A DNA stretch of 64,000 bases, taken from Escherichia coli (GTDB lineage Bacteria; Pseudomonadota; Gammaproteobacteria; Enterobacterales; Enterobacteriaceae). Where the stretch lies: NCBI RefSeq assembly GCF_044324875.1, contig NZ_CP172185.1; one strand, written 5' to 3'. Positions within the stretch are counted from its first letter, which is position 1. Each line of letters opens with the position of its first letter. Shown piece by piece: positions 10,743-47,215 of this stretch. A program made the translations under genes and the position numbers. Under the pieces are notes generated by a model. The model was not told where the DNA came from and searched no databases. It saw nothing but the letters and a program-made list of their open reading frames with translations.

Positions 10743-13538
<2,796 letters not shown>

Positions 13539-13547
13539 GGATAAGAT

Positions 13548-14720
13548 ATGTTCGATTTTTCAAAGGTCGTGGATCGTCATGGCACATGGTGTACGCAGTG
13601 GGATTATGTCGCTGACCGTTTCGGCACTGCTGACCTGTTACCGTTCACGATTTCAGACATGGATTTTGCCACTGCCCCCTGCATTATCGAGGCGCTGAAT
13701 CAGCGCCTGATGCACGGCGTGTTTGGCTACAGCCGCTGGAAAAACGATGAGTTTCTCGCGGCTATTGCCCACTGGTTTTCCACCCAGCATTACACCGCCA
13801 TTGATACGCAGTCGGTGGTGTATGGCCCTTCTGTTATCTATATGGTTTCAGAACTGATTCGTCAGTGGTCTGAAACAGGTGAAGGCGTGGTGATCCACAC
13901 ACCCGCCTATGACGCATTTTACAAGGCCATTGAAGGTAACCAGCGCACAGTAATGCCCGTTGCTTTAGAGAAGCAGGCTGACGGCTGGTTTTGCGATATG
14001 GGCAAGCTGGAAGCCGTGTTGGCGAAACCAGAATGTAAAATTATGCTCCTGTGTAGCCCACAGAATCCTACCGGGAAAGTGTGGACGTGCGATGAGCTGG
14101 AGATCATGGCTGACCTGTGCGAGCGTCATGGTGTGCGGGTTATTTCCGATGAAATCCATATGGATATGGTTTGGGGCGAGCAGCCGCATATTCCCTGGAG
14201 TAATGTGGCGCGCGGAGACTGGGCATTGCTAACGTCGGGATCGAAAAGTTTCAATATTCCCGCCCTGACCGGTGCTTACGGGATTATAGAAAATAGCAGC
14301 AGCCGTGATGCCTATTTATCGGCACTGAAAGGACGTGATGGCCTTTCTTCCCCTTCGGTACTGGCGTTAACTGCCCATATCGCCGCCTATCAGCAAGGCG
14401 CGCCGTGGCTGGATGCCTTACGCGTCTATCTGAAAGATAACCTGACGTATATCGCAGATAAAATGAACGCCGCGTTCCCTGAACTCAACTGGCAGATCCC
14501 GCAATCCACTTATCTGGCCTGGATTGATCTACGTCCGTTGAATATTGACGACAACGCGTTGCAAAAAGCGCTTATCGAGCAAGAGAAGGTCGCGATCATG
14601 CCGGGGTATACCTACGGTGAAGAAGGTCGTGGTTTTGTCCGTCTCAATGCCGGGTGCCCGCGTTCGAAACTGGAAAAAGGTGTGGCTGGATTAATTAACG
14701 CCATCCGCGCTGTTCGCTAA
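13548..14720 (+). CDS. malY: Bifunctional cystathionine beta-lyase / MalT-regulon modulator MalY
   Basis: 390-aa PLP aminotransferase-fold protein directly downstream of malX. Confidence 0.9.
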   Translation: MFDFSKVVDRHGTWCTQWDYVADRFGTADLLPFTISDMDFATAPCIIEALNQRLMHGVFGYSRWKNDEFLAAIAHWFSTQHYTAIDTQSVVYGPSVIYMVSELIRQWSETGEGVVIHTPAYDAFYKAIEGNQRTVMPVALEKQADGWFCDMGKLEAVLAKPECKIMLLCSPQNPTGKVWTCDELEIMADLCERHGVRVISDEIHMDMVWGEQPHIPWSNVARGDWALLTSGSKSFNIPALTGAYGIIENSSSRDAYLSALKGRDGLSSPSVLALTAHIAAYQQGAPWLDALRVYLKDNLTYIADKMNAAFPELNWQIPQSTYLAWIDLRPLNIDDNALQKALIEQEKVAIMPGYTYGEEGRGFVRLNAGCPRSKLEKGVAGLINAIRAVR

Positions 14721-41583: not shown

Positions 41584-44500
41584 ATGGCAGATAATCCAAA
41601 CCTTTCATCGCCCCTGCCGGACGTGTTTTCACCGGCAACCCGCGACTGGTTTCTTCGCGCCTTTAAACAGCCGACCGCTGTCCAGTCGCAAACCTGGCAT
41701 GTGGCGGCGCGAGGCGAACATGCGCTGGTGATTGCACCGACTGGCTCCGGGAAAACGCTGGCAGCATTTCTCTACGCCCTCGATCAGCTCTTCCGCGAAG
41801 GCGGCGAAGATACCCGCGAGGCGCATAAACGTAAAACCTCACGCATCCTCTATATTTCACCGATCAAAGCTCTGGGCACCGACGTTCAGCGCAACTTGCA
41901 GATCCCGTTACAGGGTATTGCCGATGAACGGCGGCGGCGCGGCGAAACGGAAGTCAATCTTCGCGTGGGGATCCGTACTGGCGATACGCCTGCACAGGAA
42001 CGCAGCAAACTCACCCGTAATCCGCCGGATATTCTGATCACCACACCCGAATCACTCTATCTGATGCTGACCTCCCGCGCGCGCGAAACGCTACGCGGCG
42101 TCGAAACGGTAATTATTGATGAAGTCCACGCGGTAGCGGGCAGTAAACGTGGTGCGCATCTGGCGTTAAGTCTGGAGCGGCTCGATGCGCTGCTCCACAC
42201 CTCAGCACAGCGAATTGGCCTTTCTGCCACTGTACGCTCAGCCAGCGATGTTGCAGCATTTCTTGGTGGCGATCGCCCGGTTACGGTAGTAAACCCGCCC
42301 GCAATGCGCCATCCGCAGATACGGATTGTCGTACCGGTCGCCAATATGGATGATGTCTCATCGGTCGCCAGCGGCACCGGCGAAGACAGCCATGCCGGCC
42401 GAGAAGGCTCCATCTGGCCATATATTGAAACGGGTATCCTTGATGAAGTTTTGCGCCATCGCTCGACCATTGTCTTTACTAATTCACGCGGGCTGGCGGA
42501 AAAACTGACGGCACGATTGAATGAACTTTACGCCGCACGCTTACAGCGTTCCCCGTCTATCGCCGTTGATGCGGTCCATTTCGAGTCGACCTCCGGCGCA
42601 ACCTCTAACCGTGTACAAAATAGCGACATTTTTATTGCCCGCTCACACCACGGCTCCGTCTCTAAAGAACAACGAGCAATCACCGAACAGGCGCTGAAAT
42701 CGGGTGAATTACGCTGCGTGGTCGCAACCTCCAGTCTCGAACTGGGGATTGATATGGGCGCGGTGGATCTGGTGATTCAGGTGGCAACGCCGCTTTCTGT
42801 TGCCAGTGGGTTACAACGCATTGGACGTGCCGGACACCAGGTAGGTGGTATCTCCAAAGGGCTTTTTTTCCCCCGAACCAGGCGTGACTTAGTCGATTCC
42901 GCAGTCATTGTAGAGTGTATGTTCGCAGGCAGGCTGGAAAACCTGACACCGCCGCATAATCCACTCGACGTCCTTGCGCAGCAAACCGTTGCCGCCGCGG
43001 CGATGGATGCATTACAGGTAGACGAATGGTAATCCCGCGTACGCCGTGCCGCACCGTGGAAAGATCTGCCAAGACGTGTTTTTGACGCCACGCTGGATAT
43101 GCTTTCCGGGCGCTATCCCTCTGGCGATTTTTCTGCTTTTCGCCCCAAACTGGTCTGGAACCGGGAGACCGGGATATTGACCGCCCGACCTGGCGCTCAA
43201 TTGTTGGCGGTTACCAGCGGCGGCACCATTCCGGATCGTGGCATGTATAGCGTGTTATTACCCGAAGGTGAAGAACAGGCCGGTTCGCGGCGGGTGGGTG
43301 AACTGGATGAGGAGATGGTATATGAGTCGCGGGTGAACGACATTATCACTCTCGGCGCTACCTCATGGCGGATCCAGCAAATCACCCGCGATCAGGTGAT
43401 TGTGACTCCTGCTCCAGGTCGTTCTGCCCGCCTTCCCTTCTGGCGTGGTGAAGGTAACGGACGTCCGGCAGAATTAGGCGAGATGATCGGCGATTTTCTC
43501 CATTTACTGGCGGATGGCGCGTTCTTTTCCGGGACTATTCCCCCGTGGTTGGCAGAAGAAAATACGATCGCCAATATTCAGGGGTTGATTGACGAGCAGC
43601 GCAACGCGACGGGCATCGTTCCAGGTAGTCGTCATCTGGTCCTCGAACGGTGCCGTGATGAAATTGGTGACTGGCGTATTATTTTGCACTCTCCCTATGG
43701 AAGACGGGTGCATGAACCCTGGGCGCTGGCGATTGCCGGGCGAATACATGCACTATGGGGCGCTGACGCGTCTGTGGTTGCCAGTGATGACGGCATTGTT
43801 GCGCGCATTCCTGACACCGATGGTAAATTGCCTGATGCCGCGATTTTTTTGTTTGAACCAGAAAAGTTGCTGCAAATTGTCCGCGAGGCGGTAGGCAGCT
43901 CGGCACTTTTCGCCGCCCGTTTTCGCGAATGCTCCGCGCGGGCATTATTAATGCCGGGCCGCACGCCGGGCCATCGCACCCCGCTCTGGCAACAACGGCT
44001 GCGCGCCAGTCAGTTGCTGGAAATCGCTCAGGGATATCCGGATTTTCCGGTCATTCTCGAAACACTACGCGAATGTCTGCAAGATGTTTATGATCTTCCC
44101 GCGCTGGAACGTTTGATGCGTCGCCTGAACGGTGGCGAAATTCAAATATCCGATGTAACGACCACTACGCCTTCGCCTTTCGCCGCCAGTTTATTGTTCG
44201 GCTATGTCGCGGAATTTATGTACCAGAGCGACGCCCCGCTGGCAGAGCGCCGGGCATCCGTACTGTCGCTGGACAGCGAGTTACTGCGCAATCTACTCGG
44301 ACAGGTCGATCCGGGGGAATTACTCGACCCGCAGGTCATTCGCCAGGTGGAAGAAGAGTTGCAACGACTGGCTCCTGGCAGAAGAGCGAAAGGTGAAGAA
44401 GGATTGTTCGACCTGCTGCGCGAACTGGGGCCAATGACCGTTGAAGACCTGGCGCAACGACATACAGGCAGCAGTGAAGAGATTGCGTCGTATCTGGAAA

Positions 44501-45297
44501 ATCTTCTTGCAGTAAAACGAATCTTCCCGACCATGATTAGCGGGCAGGAGCGTCTTGCCTGTATGGATGATGCCGCCAGGCTGCGCGATGCTCTCGGCGT
44601 ACGACTACCAGAGTCACTGCCAGAGATTTATTTGCACCGAGTCAGTTACCCGCTTCGCGACCTCTTTCTGCGCTATCTCCGGGCTCATGCTCTGGTCACG
44701 TCTGAACAACTGGCTCATGAGTTTAGTCTCGGTACTGCCATTGTCGAAGAGCAACTTCAGCAACTGCGCGAACAGGGGCTGGTGATGAATCTGCAACAAG
44801 ACATCTGGGTGAGCGATGAAGTATTTCGTCGTCTGCGTTTGCGCTCGCTGCAAGCCGCCAGAGAAGCGACACGTCCCGTTGCGGCCACGACCTATGCGCG
44901 ATTGCTGCTGGAACGTCAGGGCGTATTACCCGCCACCGATGGTAGCCCGGCACTCTTTGCCTCAACATCGCCAGGCGTTTATGAGGGCGTGGATGGCGTG
45001 ATGCGGGTGATCGAACAGCTTGCTGGCGTTGGTTTACCCGCCTCACTCTGGGAAAGCCAGATCCTGCCTGCCCGCGTACGCGACTATTCGCCAGAAATGC
45101 TCGATGAATTACTGGCAACCGGTGCGGTTATCTGGTCGGGGCAAAAAAAGCTGGGTGAAGATGACGGTCTGGTGGCACTGCATCTACAGGAATATGCCGC
45201 AGAATCGTTCACTCCCGCCGAAGCAGATCAGGCGAATCGTTCGGCGCTGCAGCAAGCGATAATCGCTGTTCTGGCTGACGGAGGTGATCAGACATGA
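41584..45297 (+). pseudogene. lhr: ATP-dependent helicase Lhr, inactivated by an in-frame TAA at 43030-43032 and a 3' truncation at the prophage junction
   Basis: ORFs 41584..43032 and 43099..45297 are in the same frame and separated only by TAA; helicase motifs GSGKT and DEVH lie in the first part. The combined length is about 1237 codons against about 1538 expected. Confidence 0.8.
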
Positions 45298-45480
45298 GAT
45301 AAATGAAGGGGGATCCGTGAGATAAATAACGAATTGGAGTGGGTTAACATGGGTTCTGGTGAACAGAACTGAAATTCTTTTCCGCTATACGATAGATAAG
45401 TCGGGCATTGAAATCATCCTTCCTGGCAACTTAGAATCGAGTTTGCTGAAACATGACCCGCAACAAAAAGGATGATTCCA

Positions 45481-45642
45481 ATGACTACTCAAAACAATAA
45501 GCATGATAGCCTGGATTACTCAGAAAAGCCCAAAAGCAAGCACATCGTGACGTTCGAGCGCGATTCCGGTAGAAAAGGAGAATCGTCTTCCTCTGCCAAT
45601 AAAACCACTATGCCGGCAGCCCCTGCCCCAGGGAAAAAATAA
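45481..45642 (+). CDS. Possible small hydrophilic protein (53 aa) at prophage end
   Basis: ATG with AAGGA SD 6 bp upstream; MTTQNNKHDSLDYSEKPKSKHIVTFERDSGRKGESSSSANKTTMPAAPAPGKK. Convergent with the next gene with only 3 bp between stops, so uncertain. Confidence 0.25.
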   Translation: MTTQNNKHDSLDYSEKPKSKHIVTFERDSGRKGESSSSANKTTMPAAPAPGKK

Positions 45643-45645
45643 ACA

Positions 45646-46278
45646 TCATTCATCGTTCGTTGCACGAACGCGCCTGATCTCCACTCTGGCAATCTGATCT
45701 GCTGGAATATAGGTTGCCAGAGCTCCCCAGTACTTATCAACCACGCCTTTATACTCTTCCCATTCGTTACTGCCTGAAGGGCTGCTGTGCGTGACGTAAA
45801 GAACCATATCGCCTTTATTCCCCAGGGTAAACGGACCGTTAGGCCACTCTTCAAAGTTCCCTGGCAGCCGTGACATCATACCGGAACCATCGCGAAGAAT
45901 CACTCTGACCTCGGTAACGCTGAAGCCTGTTTGATCAAACATTGCCTGCCATGCTGAGCTGGTATCGTCAGACCATGAAATATCATTATTCCACAGTAAT
46001 CTGTACATCCATTTGCGACCGTACCTGCGCCACCACGCACCGCATGTAACGGCACACAGAAGTGCTGGTGGTGTTGCCAGCCAGGCATTCAGACCTGCCC
46101 ACATAACAGCCTGGTAAGCCATCATTGCTGTCAGGCCAAAAATCAGCGAAGAAAAAGTCACCTCAATGGGCTTGTGGTGATCCTTCAGTCCCACATTCGC
46201 AATAAAATACCCAATATAGCCACTGGTCAGGGTCACCAGTGTTGCCCATGGCAGATTTAACAACGAAACGTCAAACAT
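45646..46278 (-). CDS. Prophage terminal membrane protein of unknown function (3 predicted TM helices plus about 120-aa soluble domain)
   Basis: Start chosen at MFDVSLLNLPW..., which has a GGGAGA SD; lies downstream of a terminator that follows mor. Confidence 0.6.
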   Translation of the reverse strand: MFDVSLLNLPWATLVTLTSGYIGYFIANVGLKDHHKPIEVTFSSLIFGLTAMMAYQAVMWAGLNAWLATPPALLCAVTCGAWWRRYGRKWMYRLLWNNDISWSDDTSSAWQAMFDQTGFSVTEVRVILRDGSGMMSRLPGNFEEWPNGPFTLGNKGDMVLYVTHSSPSGSNEWEEYKGVVDKYWGALATYIPADQIARVEIRRVRATNDE

Positions 46279-46313
46279 ATTTTCTCCCTGCATCCTGAAT
46301 ACTAAAGAGAGAG

Positions 46314-46349
46314 CATAAAAAAAGCACGGTAAGGGGTCTACCGTGCTTT
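46314..46349 (-). terminator. Rho-independent terminator after mor
   Basis: On the minus strand: GCACGGTA-GACCCCTT-ACCGTGC followed by TTTTTTT. Confidence 0.6.
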
Positions 46350-46392
46350 TATACAATAAGGAGATTTTTGAAAGGACTTTAACAAGCAGGAA

Positions 46393-46791
46393 TTATCTGG
46401 ATTTGTTAACGTCTTTCGTCTCCTCTGGCAGATCTTCATCAAACAACCTGCCCTGCATCCGATCCAGTTCTTCTTTTCTGACCCGCTTAACCACGCTGTA
46501 GACCCACTGAAGCGAAACACCAAACTTGCGGGCCAGTTCGTGGTGGTTGCGTCCGTTAAACTCCCTGAAGATTTCCCGGTCGCGCTGACTGACCTTCCAT
46601 ACCATGCCCATCGGGAAATAAACGTTTTGCCCGCCCCAGACCTGCATCATTCGGTTCGCGACGGCCTGACCAATCTGGTCGGCAATTGCGGGCTCAATAT
46701 CAATAATCTCGCGAACGGTCTCAGAGGTATGCTGTGCCAGCTCCACCAGGAGTTCCGGCCCTTTACTTCGAAACTGATTCAGGTCGCTCAT
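46393..46791 (-). CDS. mor: Mor/C-family transcription activator (Mu middle operon regulator-like)
   Basis: 132 aa with C-terminal HTH (ELARKFGVSLQWVYSVVKR) typical of Mor; last gene of the early operon, after gemA, as in Mu. Confidence 0.75.
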   Translation of the reverse strand: MSDLNQFRSKGPELLVELAQHTSETVREIIDIEPAIADQIGQAVANRMMQVWGGQNVYFPMGMVWKVSQRDREIFREFNGRNHHELARKFGVSLQWVYSVVKRVRKEELDRMQGRLFDEDLPEETKDVNKSR

Positions 46792-47215
46792 GTTTTACTC
46801 CCGCAGCTCTGTGCTGCCACTTCTTCAGTTTCTCAATAACACTGCTTGCCTGTTCAGTATTGAGCCAGCGCAGGGCGCTGATGCCCGTTTCCCGCTTGAT
46901 CCACCGCGCTAATGCATTTTCTGAACGGTCACGAACAATGCCGGCAGCAGCCATTTCAAGCCATAGCGCACGGATTTTCCTGGACTGCGGATGGTTATCC
47001 AGCGGTAAACCGGAGCTGGCTTTTCCGGCAGGCTTAACGCGAAAGCCTTTCCTTTTCATGGATTCCAGCACGCAGTTTAGTTGTGTGGTATCCATTCCTT
47101 TGGTTGAGGCTTTACCGGTCAGCCCCTGTAACATCTGGCGATAGGTGTCTTCATCCATACCCAGTTCATTACGGGCAATATGAATGAGCTGGATAAGACG
47201 TTGTTTAGTCATCAT
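46763..47215 (-). CDS. gemA: GemA-like phage regulatory protein (Mu gp16 family)
   Basis: Core RLIQLIHIARNELGMDEDTYRQML...SRKIRALWLE resembles Mu GemA; start placed at internal Met. Confidence 0.7.
   Translation of the reverse strand: MMTKQRLIQLIHIARNELGMDEDTYRQMLQGLTGKASTKGMDTTQLNCVLESMKRKGFRVKPAGKASSGLPLDNHPQSRKIRALWLEMAAAGIVRDRSENALARWIKRETGISALRWLNTEQASSVIEKLKKWQHRAAGVKHERPESVSK

Follow-up and report, generated by a model that had tools for sequence, protein, structure and literature searches.

In the concept introduced by Hendrix and Juhala, morons are autonomous cargo genes, flanked by a promoter and a terminator, that occur in some sister phages; HK97 gp15 and the exclusion genes sieA and sieB of P22 are examples. 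Convergent pairs that overlap at their 3′ ends are found among the type I toxin-antitoxin systems of Bacillus prophages, as in txpA/RatA and bsrG/SR4. Class I holins are proteins of ~70-110 aa with three transmembrane (TM) helices, an N-out/C-in topology and a basic C-terminal tail, and they are encoded in the lysis cassette beside the endolysin. Here we describe a convergent gene pair at the left end of a BcepMu-like transposable prophage of Escherichia coli (RefSeq assembly GCF_044324875.1, contig NZ_CP172185.1). Coordinates refer to the 64,000-nucleotide stretch of this contig that was analyzed, which we call the window. Gene A encodes a 210-aa predicted membrane protein and gene B a 53-aa protein. 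We tentatively favor, at somewhat less than an even chance, the reading of this locus as a self-contained accessory cassette of two genes, or moron, in which A would be a membrane effector that is restrained by B and serves in phage exclusion or abortive infection.

We found that the object of interest at this locus is a pair of genes. A first-pass annotation of the window had centered on gene A and had described a convergent 53-aa open reading frame (ORF) with a Shine-Dalgarno (SD) sequence abutting its stop codon. The ORF and its SD are in place, and the stop codons of the two genes are 3 nt apart. The accompanying doubt whether this ORF is real did not survive comparison with other loci. 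Both ORFs are far above chance expectation and both are real genes. To define the pairing we used 28 distinct loci, meaning distinct variants with enough downstream sequence, pooled from fetched loci (L numbers below) that included 38 viral contigs. A B-like ORF of 40-66 aa converged on A in 25 of the 28, across gamma- and alphaproteobacteria and with A proteins 30-100% identical. The gaps between the A and B stop codons were mostly −4 to +7 nt, with three overlapping pairs and one gap of ~55 nt. Enterobacterial partners are 46-53 aa long, convergent, end 2-5 nt from the A stop and have the motif [DE][YF]SE.PK[GS] in common. The alphaproteobacterial A homologs (30-46% identity) have no mor gene nearby, yet a convergent ORF of 40-66 aa abuts the A stop there as well; these partners contain N[YFH].P.T repeats and end in PPPSPKKK or similar.

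The B protein of the window is hydrophilic, rich in Pro, Thr and Lys, and predicted to be disordered and cytoplasmic. It contains the motif DYSEKPK, and its Pro-rich tail (MPAAPAPGKK) has KK as the last two residues. It matched phrog_15726 (E 1e-41), no Pfam or other functional family was found for it, and all of its database entries read 'hypothetical'. The ratio of nonsynonymous to synonymous substitution rates (dN/dS) was 0.15 between two Serratia copies and 0.16 between the Bradyrhizobium and Afipia copies, with synonymous sites unsaturated, indicating that B is a protein-coding gene under purifying selection; its reading frame is also conserved in diverged loci. Because B is a near-constant partner of A, we conclude that the functional unit is the convergent gene pair and not a single gene. 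We also considered B as a poly-proline/lysine stalling leader peptide. This idea was set aside because some enterobacterial partners have no Pro-rich or basic end (L024, ...SSLKDKK; L011, ...APLDND) and because purifying selection acts on the whole peptide. In Bradyrhizobium/Afipia-like loci an ORF of 156-160 aa with no family match lies immediately 5′ of B on the same strand (L003 8802-9272; L026 8509-8991) and may be a lineage-specific third component.

Gene A belongs to a family of 392 cluster representatives (50% identity) at E ≤ 1e-3 in a set of 1.84 billion proteins, nearly all of them full-length at ~200-215 aa, and its product matched phrog_12870 end to end (E 6e-134). The protein had no match in Pfam, even at E ≤ 10, and NCBIfam yielded nothing usable for A or B, the single match (RhaT, E 0.18) being noise. 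A sequence profile search of the PDB returned matches at chance level alone (E ≥ 0.045) and thus no solved relative. The first-pass annotation had left the protein family without an assigned function, which is borne out by the Pfam, PADLOC and NCBIfam scans, and the homology to a structural or replication protein that would have spoken against an accessory role was looked for and was absent. DUF6338 (PF19865) was weakly matched by 6 of 57 diverse relatives of A at E ≤ 1e-3 (best 1.4e-5), and some homologs carry a precomputed match to it, and DUF6338 may be a distant relative of the family. A Foldseek search of AFDB50 recovered uncharacterized family members with few automatic labels, among them three of DUF421 (a YetF-type label) and one of 'SMODS-associating 2TM beta-strand rich effector domain'.

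Three TM helices had been proposed for A. Three uncharged helices are present (residues 9-30, 40-62 and 63-83); their hydrophobicity is moderate, with mean Kyte-Doolittle values of 1.0-1.3, which makes membrane insertion well founded but short of certain. AlphaFold2, run with family alignments, placed helices at residues 11-27, 37-60 and 65-97 and a beta-barrel at residues 119-205, with a predicted local distance difference test (pLDDT) score of 94-97 in the barrel. A conserved linker, ISWSDxxSSAW, is modeled with low confidence. The modeled barrel is Sm/SH3-like and its best fold matches are Sm/LSm proteins. In the Sm fold a helix precedes a sheet of five strands that is strongly bent, and in SCOP the Sm-like fold also includes the middle beta-domain of the MscS channel. 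A catalytic Ser/His/Asp site in A was considered and rejected, as these residues vary in the wider alignment. The most conserved segment of the protein is TM1 (entropy of 1.62 bits, compared with 2.3-2.6 elsewhere). Basic residues are concentrated in loop 1 and after helix 3, in the juxtamembrane stretch RRYGRKWMYR, and by the positive-inside rule this distribution would put the N terminus outside and the barrel in the cytoplasm. We infer that A is a three-helix inner-membrane protein with an N-out/C-in topology.

The charge distribution and modeled helices of A fit a predicted topology like that of class I holins, and such a likeness could point to a function in the lytic cycle. Accordingly, A could be holin-like and set lysis timing, or it could exclude superinfecting or re-adsorbing phages during lytic growth, in either case expressed by read-through from the upstream phage operon and with B acting in an antiholin-like way. 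The predicted N-out/C-in arrangement, the three weakly hydrophobic helices and the basic cytoplasmic juxtamembrane region agree with this account, as does the orientation of A, which matches that of the preceding operon behind mor and, in the viral contig L073, behind the head-morphogenesis genes. The account is nonetheless improbable in our estimation, the least probable of those we weighed, because the prophage has a separate holin, transglycosylase and Rz-like cassette, because A is twice the size of a class I holin and absent from most sister prophages, because a terminator separates A from the early operon, and because recombinase-bounded islands that lack phage structural genes within 8-9 kb carry the pair as well.

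The cassette is optional cargo. Gene A was present in 131 of 5426 complete E. coli genomes, always on the chromosome and always annotated 'hypothetical'. A query with positions 45285-46900 returned 537 records in the 95-99% identity band in which, among the matches listed, only gemA-mor aligned. Homology between the long-ended and short-ended prophages breaks at ~46433, inside the 3′ end of mor, which is the right boundary of the variable end segment. In the two short-ended records that were opened (L021 and L022), mor is followed by ~145 bp of phage end and then by host DNA. The GC content of the cassette is 0.41-0.50, compared with 0.53-0.55 for the remaining prophage. Given its presence or absence between 97%-identical prophages and the fact that unrelated phages and islands carry it in other accessory slots, we conclude that the cassette is accessory cargo, in agreement with what had been proposed for gene A from its place at the prophage end.

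Some related observations concern the surroundings of the cassette. The break at ~46393-46433 falls in the last ~13 codons of mor, so that the C-terminal tail of the Mor protein differs between the two prophage variants. A diverged E. coli variant has an extra ORF of 78 aa (WP_001610543.1) between mor and a 214-aa A homolog (L023 3943-4179; L025 2200-2436). In L023 this ORF lies 5′ of the terminator that precedes gene A, and L024 has a similar, unannotated gap of ~350 bp. In prophages of Citrobacter, Serratia and Salmonella, whose transposases are 49-56% identical, A always follows gemA-mor. Collections of deposited phages and plasmids held almost no copies, with one distant cyanophage match and one full-length plasmid match.

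Outside this prophage group the pair occupies a variety of positions. In the viral contig L073 (4637-9005) it lies between a Mu F-like head-morphogenesis gene and a scaffold gene, a slot that houses anti-CRISPR loci in Pseudomonas Mu-like phages. In L070 it sits between head/protease and terminase genes, and in L032 between the divergent early operons, that is, the prophage switch region, of an integrase-bearing element. L006, L026 and L030 are recombinase-bounded islands. The edges of the L030 island carry serine recombinases and an IS110 element, and 2 kb from the pair (11715-13687) are genes for a SLATT-domain protein and a ThsB-type TIR protein, together with a third gene that matches a TIR-effector hidden Markov model. 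In L006 the pair adjoins a Rap1a gene resembling type VI secretion system (T6SS) immunity genes. The varied slots in different mobile elements indicate that A and B move as a unit.

Another explanation, which the Rap1a neighbor in L006 would suit, is that the pair is lysogenic-conversion cargo unrelated to phages, for example providing immunity to or protection from a membrane-acting bacteriocin or a secreted toxin, acting as an envelope-stress or ion-homeostasis factor, or sensing a cytoplasmic ligand through the barrel. The moron-like anatomy and distribution would suit such cargo, and an architecture of about three TM helices plus a soluble barrel is common to families of unknown role (the DUF421-labeled relatives and DUF6338). 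We regard this explanation as unlikely. No cognate toxin, transporter or regulator is conserved beside the pair, the sequence indicates no particular ligand or stress, and a constant disordered-peptide partner is without parallel among immunity proteins.

We next considered the control signals of the cassette. The first-pass annotation had proposed a rho-independent terminator downstream of mor, insulating from the early operon a 210-aa gene with its own SD. All of these elements are present: a hairpin of 13 pairs followed by a T run lies between mor and gene A, and the A ORF is preceded by an SD and has the C-terminal end that had been read for it (Table 1). The hairpin lies ~40 bases 3′ of mor and ~40 nt 5′ of the A ATG. 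Terminators are placed 35-40 nt before the A ATG in three cassette variants (L023, L024 and that of the window), and the three hairpins are unrelated in sequence. Read on the plus strand, the hairpin at 46350-46320 precedes TTTTAT and may therefore be bidirectional, stopping antisense transcripts from the B promoter too. A consensus promoter scan found none before gene A. Weak −35/−10-like hexamers in the hairpin loop and T run (TAGACC, 17 nt, TATGCT) match the consensus at 8 of 12 positions, below the threshold of the scan, and keep the same spacing in two variants; by our own reading they could be a weak embedded promoter.

In contrast to A, gene B has a near-consensus candidate promoter. 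It is also found in L024 and is conserved in the Citrobacter, Serratia and Salmonella loci. No plus-strand terminator was found by the consensus scan between gene B and the hairpin after mor, so transcripts from the B promoter should run antisense across all of A. An inverted repeat joins the −35 region of this promoter to the SD and ATG of B. As RNA it has a predicted folding energy of −22.9 kcal/mol (z −2.5), it is kept in 4 other loci (Citrobacter, Serratia and Salmonella ends), and the fold would form only in transcripts arriving from beyond the B promoter. By analogy with what has been described for IS10, the repeat may mask B translation when transcription reads through from the insertion site; otherwise it may be an operator. 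No known RNA in the region was recovered from Rfam.

The layout of the control signals is relevant to a further possibility, that the pair is an addiction module resembling toxin-antitoxin systems, with A a membrane toxin and B its neutralizer, acting as a labile protein or an antisense transcript. Cells that lose the element would be killed, and any anti-phage effect would be secondary. The convergent, 3′-abutting genes are laid out like type I toxin-antitoxin pairs, A is insulated and without a strong promoter whereas the B promoter is near consensus, B is disordered like many antitoxins, and the pair is carried by many kinds of mobile element. One family member also weakly matches the membrane toxin family Cpta_toxin (E 4e-4), although this single match probably reflects TM composition. 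Set against these points, A is intact without B in 3 of the 28 loci and, at 210 aa, is no small hydrophobic peptide; purifying selection acts on B as a protein-coding gene, which goes beyond a plain antisense RNA; in contrast to type II systems, A and B do not form an operon and no DNA-binding domain is present in B; and transposable prophages do not excise and hence would have little need of addiction. We therefore consider an addiction module a rather doubtful explanation.

The heavy insulation of A, together with a constitutive-looking B promoter that would fire antisense into it, suggests that the dose of A matters. This suggested dose sensitivity is why we favor a membrane effector that is kept low or inactive by its partner. 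Under our preferred reading, A would be a dose-sensitive membrane effector that either blocks the entry of incoming phage DNA or damages the membrane of the infected cell. B could restrain or tune A by two routes. Transcription from the B promoter could run antisense through A, and the motifs of the B peptide ([YFH]-[ST]-[EP]-x-[PT] and the Pro-rich basic tail) could bind the A barrel. In an AlphaFold2 model of a fused A-linker-B chain, which carries no contact information, the Pro-rich tail of B reached a pLDDT of 63 over a background of 40-45, the sole rise along the peptide, and this may be a weak hint of docking.

Several observations weigh against this reading. L012, L060 and L065 carry A with all conserved residues and no B, and B is therefore not indispensable. 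A pLDDT of 63 in a fused model is no evidence for a complex. Neither protein was matched by PADLOC-DB 2.0.0 (5027 models) at E ≤ 1, and with Pfam, NCBIfam and PADLOC empty for both, no homology ties the pair to phage resistance. Known defense genes lie near the pair in 1 of 6 annotated contexts outside the Enterobacterales. Superinfection exclusion or abortive infection had also been suggested, as conjecture, in the first-pass annotation, and that suggestion gained no support from the PADLOC scan or from these gene contexts. The A helices are of modest hydrophobicity, and the predicted periplasmic exposure of A amounts to 8 N-terminal residues and a 3-residue loop, which is unusual for proteins that block DNA entry. 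Finally, the promoters and the terminator of the cassette are consensus matches only. A more far-reaching and unlikely version of the same idea is that the pair is an undescribed, self-sufficient immunity module of temperate phages and islands in alpha- and gammaproteobacteria. Here a holin-like A would be held off by a disordered Pro-rich peptide on its barrel and by antisense transcription, and it would be released by an infection that halts peptide supply or by a phage product that displaces the peptide, leading to membrane failure or a block of DNA entry.

Table 1. Positions in the window of the cassette genes, their candidate control elements and the left end of the prophage.
Feature	Position	Strand	Detail and basis
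Gene A, 210-aa membrane protein gene	46278-45646	-	stop codon 45646-45648; protein ends ...VEIRRVRATNDE
Shine-Dalgarno of gene A, AGGGAGAA	46283-46290	-	5-6 nt before ATG at 46278; read from sequence
Gene B, 53-aa small partner gene	45481-45642	+	AAGGA 9 nt 5′ of its ATG; phrog_15726; RefSeq WP_001571575.1
Candidate promoter of gene B, sigma-70-like	45408-45437	+	TTGAAA, 18 nt, TAGAAT; 10/12 consensus matches; consensus scan
Inverted repeat, arms 45406-45421 and 45468-45483	45406-45483	+	16 nt, 94% complementary; joins -35 region to gene B SD/ATG
Intrinsic terminator after mor	46350-46320	-	13 pairs then T run (AAAAGCACGGTAGACCCCTTACCGTGCTTTT TTTATGC); consensus scan
mor, Mor/C-family transcription activator, final gene of leftward early operon	46393-46791	-	phrog_532; RefSeq annotation
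Terminator-like hairpin, GGTTCTGGTGAACAGAACT	45352-45370	+	consensus scan; partly kept in related ends
Left terminus of BcepMu-like prophage, TG at 45285	45285-45330		start TGATCAGAC

The element was assigned to the BcepMu-like transposable prophages from its gene content. RefSeq annotates gemA/gp16, Gam, an ExeA-family transposition protein B and a DDE transposase, followed by lysis genes and Mu-type head genes, and the nearest deposited phage is PhiKM, a Bcepmuvirus. BcepMu-like phages have an early operon that is read towards the genome end. The junction between prophage and host is at 45284/45285, inside the host gene lhr, with lhr homology extending to 45284. Elsewhere among complete E. 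coli genomes, DNA identical from 45282-45285 onward adjoins various unrelated host genes, including otsA, kefF, tdh, flgA, flgJ and clbG. The left terminus contains two direct TGAGATAAAT repeats (45295-45304 and 45318-45327), which are presumed to be transposase-binding sites, and related prophages of E. coli, Citrobacter, Serratia and Salmonella have the terminus and its repeats at their ends too. The terminator-like hairpin just inside the terminus could be a barrier against transcription coming in from host DNA. Gene A had been called the last gene before the junction; this proved incorrect, since gene B, the B promoter and ~195 bp of phage end intervene before host DNA.

Two further observations concern the junction region. 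Host lhr, encoding an ATP-dependent helicase (41584-45284), has an in-frame stop at 43030-43032 (...LQVDEW*SRVRR...) as well as the prophage inserted after 45284, and with these two interruptions it is a pseudogene in this strain. In addition, a 144-bp piece of the prophage end (45294-45438; L035 4001-4144) is found, without annotation and at ~90% identity, in numerous further E. coli records, most of them plasmids. The 45285-46900 query matched 106 plasmid places, and among the matches listed for the 144-bp piece were three plasmids and three chromosomes. In L035, the one record opened, the piece adjoins IS3 and IS1 remnants. It may have come from a related transposable phage, as an orphan end.

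Neither the gene pair nor its architecture appears to have been described before. As a general kind, prophage membrane cargo is familiar. Literature searches with DUF6338, the protein accessions and the PHROG identifiers found nothing relevant, and an E. coli defense-screen preprint mentions Mu-like prophages in passing only. Prophage ends and accessory slots have repeatedly yielded new defense, exclusion and counter-defense genes. The cassette is ~1.1 kb with sharp boundaries, exists in natural with and without versions of one E. coli prophage and has hundreds of diverged family members that are always built alike, and these properties together make a direct functional test cheap. If the anti-phage reading were true, the pair would represent a new membrane-acting system with a disordered peptide regulator of 50 aa, and a 392-cluster 'hypothetical' family would gain a function. 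Should no phenotype emerge, the conserved stop-to-stop convergence and the fold-back repeat would still be useful for understanding how transposable phages, which insert at random, keep local transcription out of their cargo.

Finally, we compared the cassette with the known systems that it most resembles. As in type I toxin-antitoxin loci, the genes are convergent and prophage-borne, the product is predicted to target the membrane, the candidate control elements are strong and the transcripts must overlap at their 3′ ends if they are made as the signals suggest, so that antisense overlap of the A and B transcripts is likely. The cassette differs from these loci in that A is a 210-aa protein with a folded domain, rather than a hydrophobic peptide of <60 aa, and B encodes a conserved protein, with no Rfam match at the locus. 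Nor does it resemble type II systems, given the convergent genes, a B protein with no recognizable domain and the intact A genes of L012, L060 and L065 that lack B. A is set apart from class I holins by its 210 aa and by its site, as the lysis cassette (holin, SLT transglycosylase and Rz-like genes) lies ~12 kb away in the same prophage, and from MscS-type channels by the lack of the MS_channel domain, with its pore-lining TM3 and its beta and alpha-beta cytoplasmic domains. Proteins of DUF6338 are similar in size to A, and the window protein itself has no match to them at E ≤ 10; because DUF6338 has no assigned role, the link explains nothing about A.

The nearest architectural parallel is with cyclic-nucleotide immunity effectors that combine TM helices with a beta-barrel, namely Cap15 (S-2TM-beta) of CBASS and the 2TM-beta effector of Panoptes (PMC12657218). 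Like these, A has N-terminal membrane helices and a small C-terminal beta-rich domain predicted to be cytoplasmic. Cap15/S-2TM-beta effectors have two TM helices and a beta-barrel that binds nucleotides, and their genes neighbor that of a CD-NTase or mCpol cyclase, a combination that A and its neighbors do not show. Compared with characterized exclusion proteins, A is without sequence or fold relation and would have almost no periplasmic exposure, and it is part of a conserved convergent pair rather than a single gene. The cassette as a whole is most like the morons: it is present or absent between 97%-identical prophages, has a lower GC content than its surroundings, carries promoter- and terminator-like signals, sits at a genome end or between modules, and encodes a predicted inner-membrane product.

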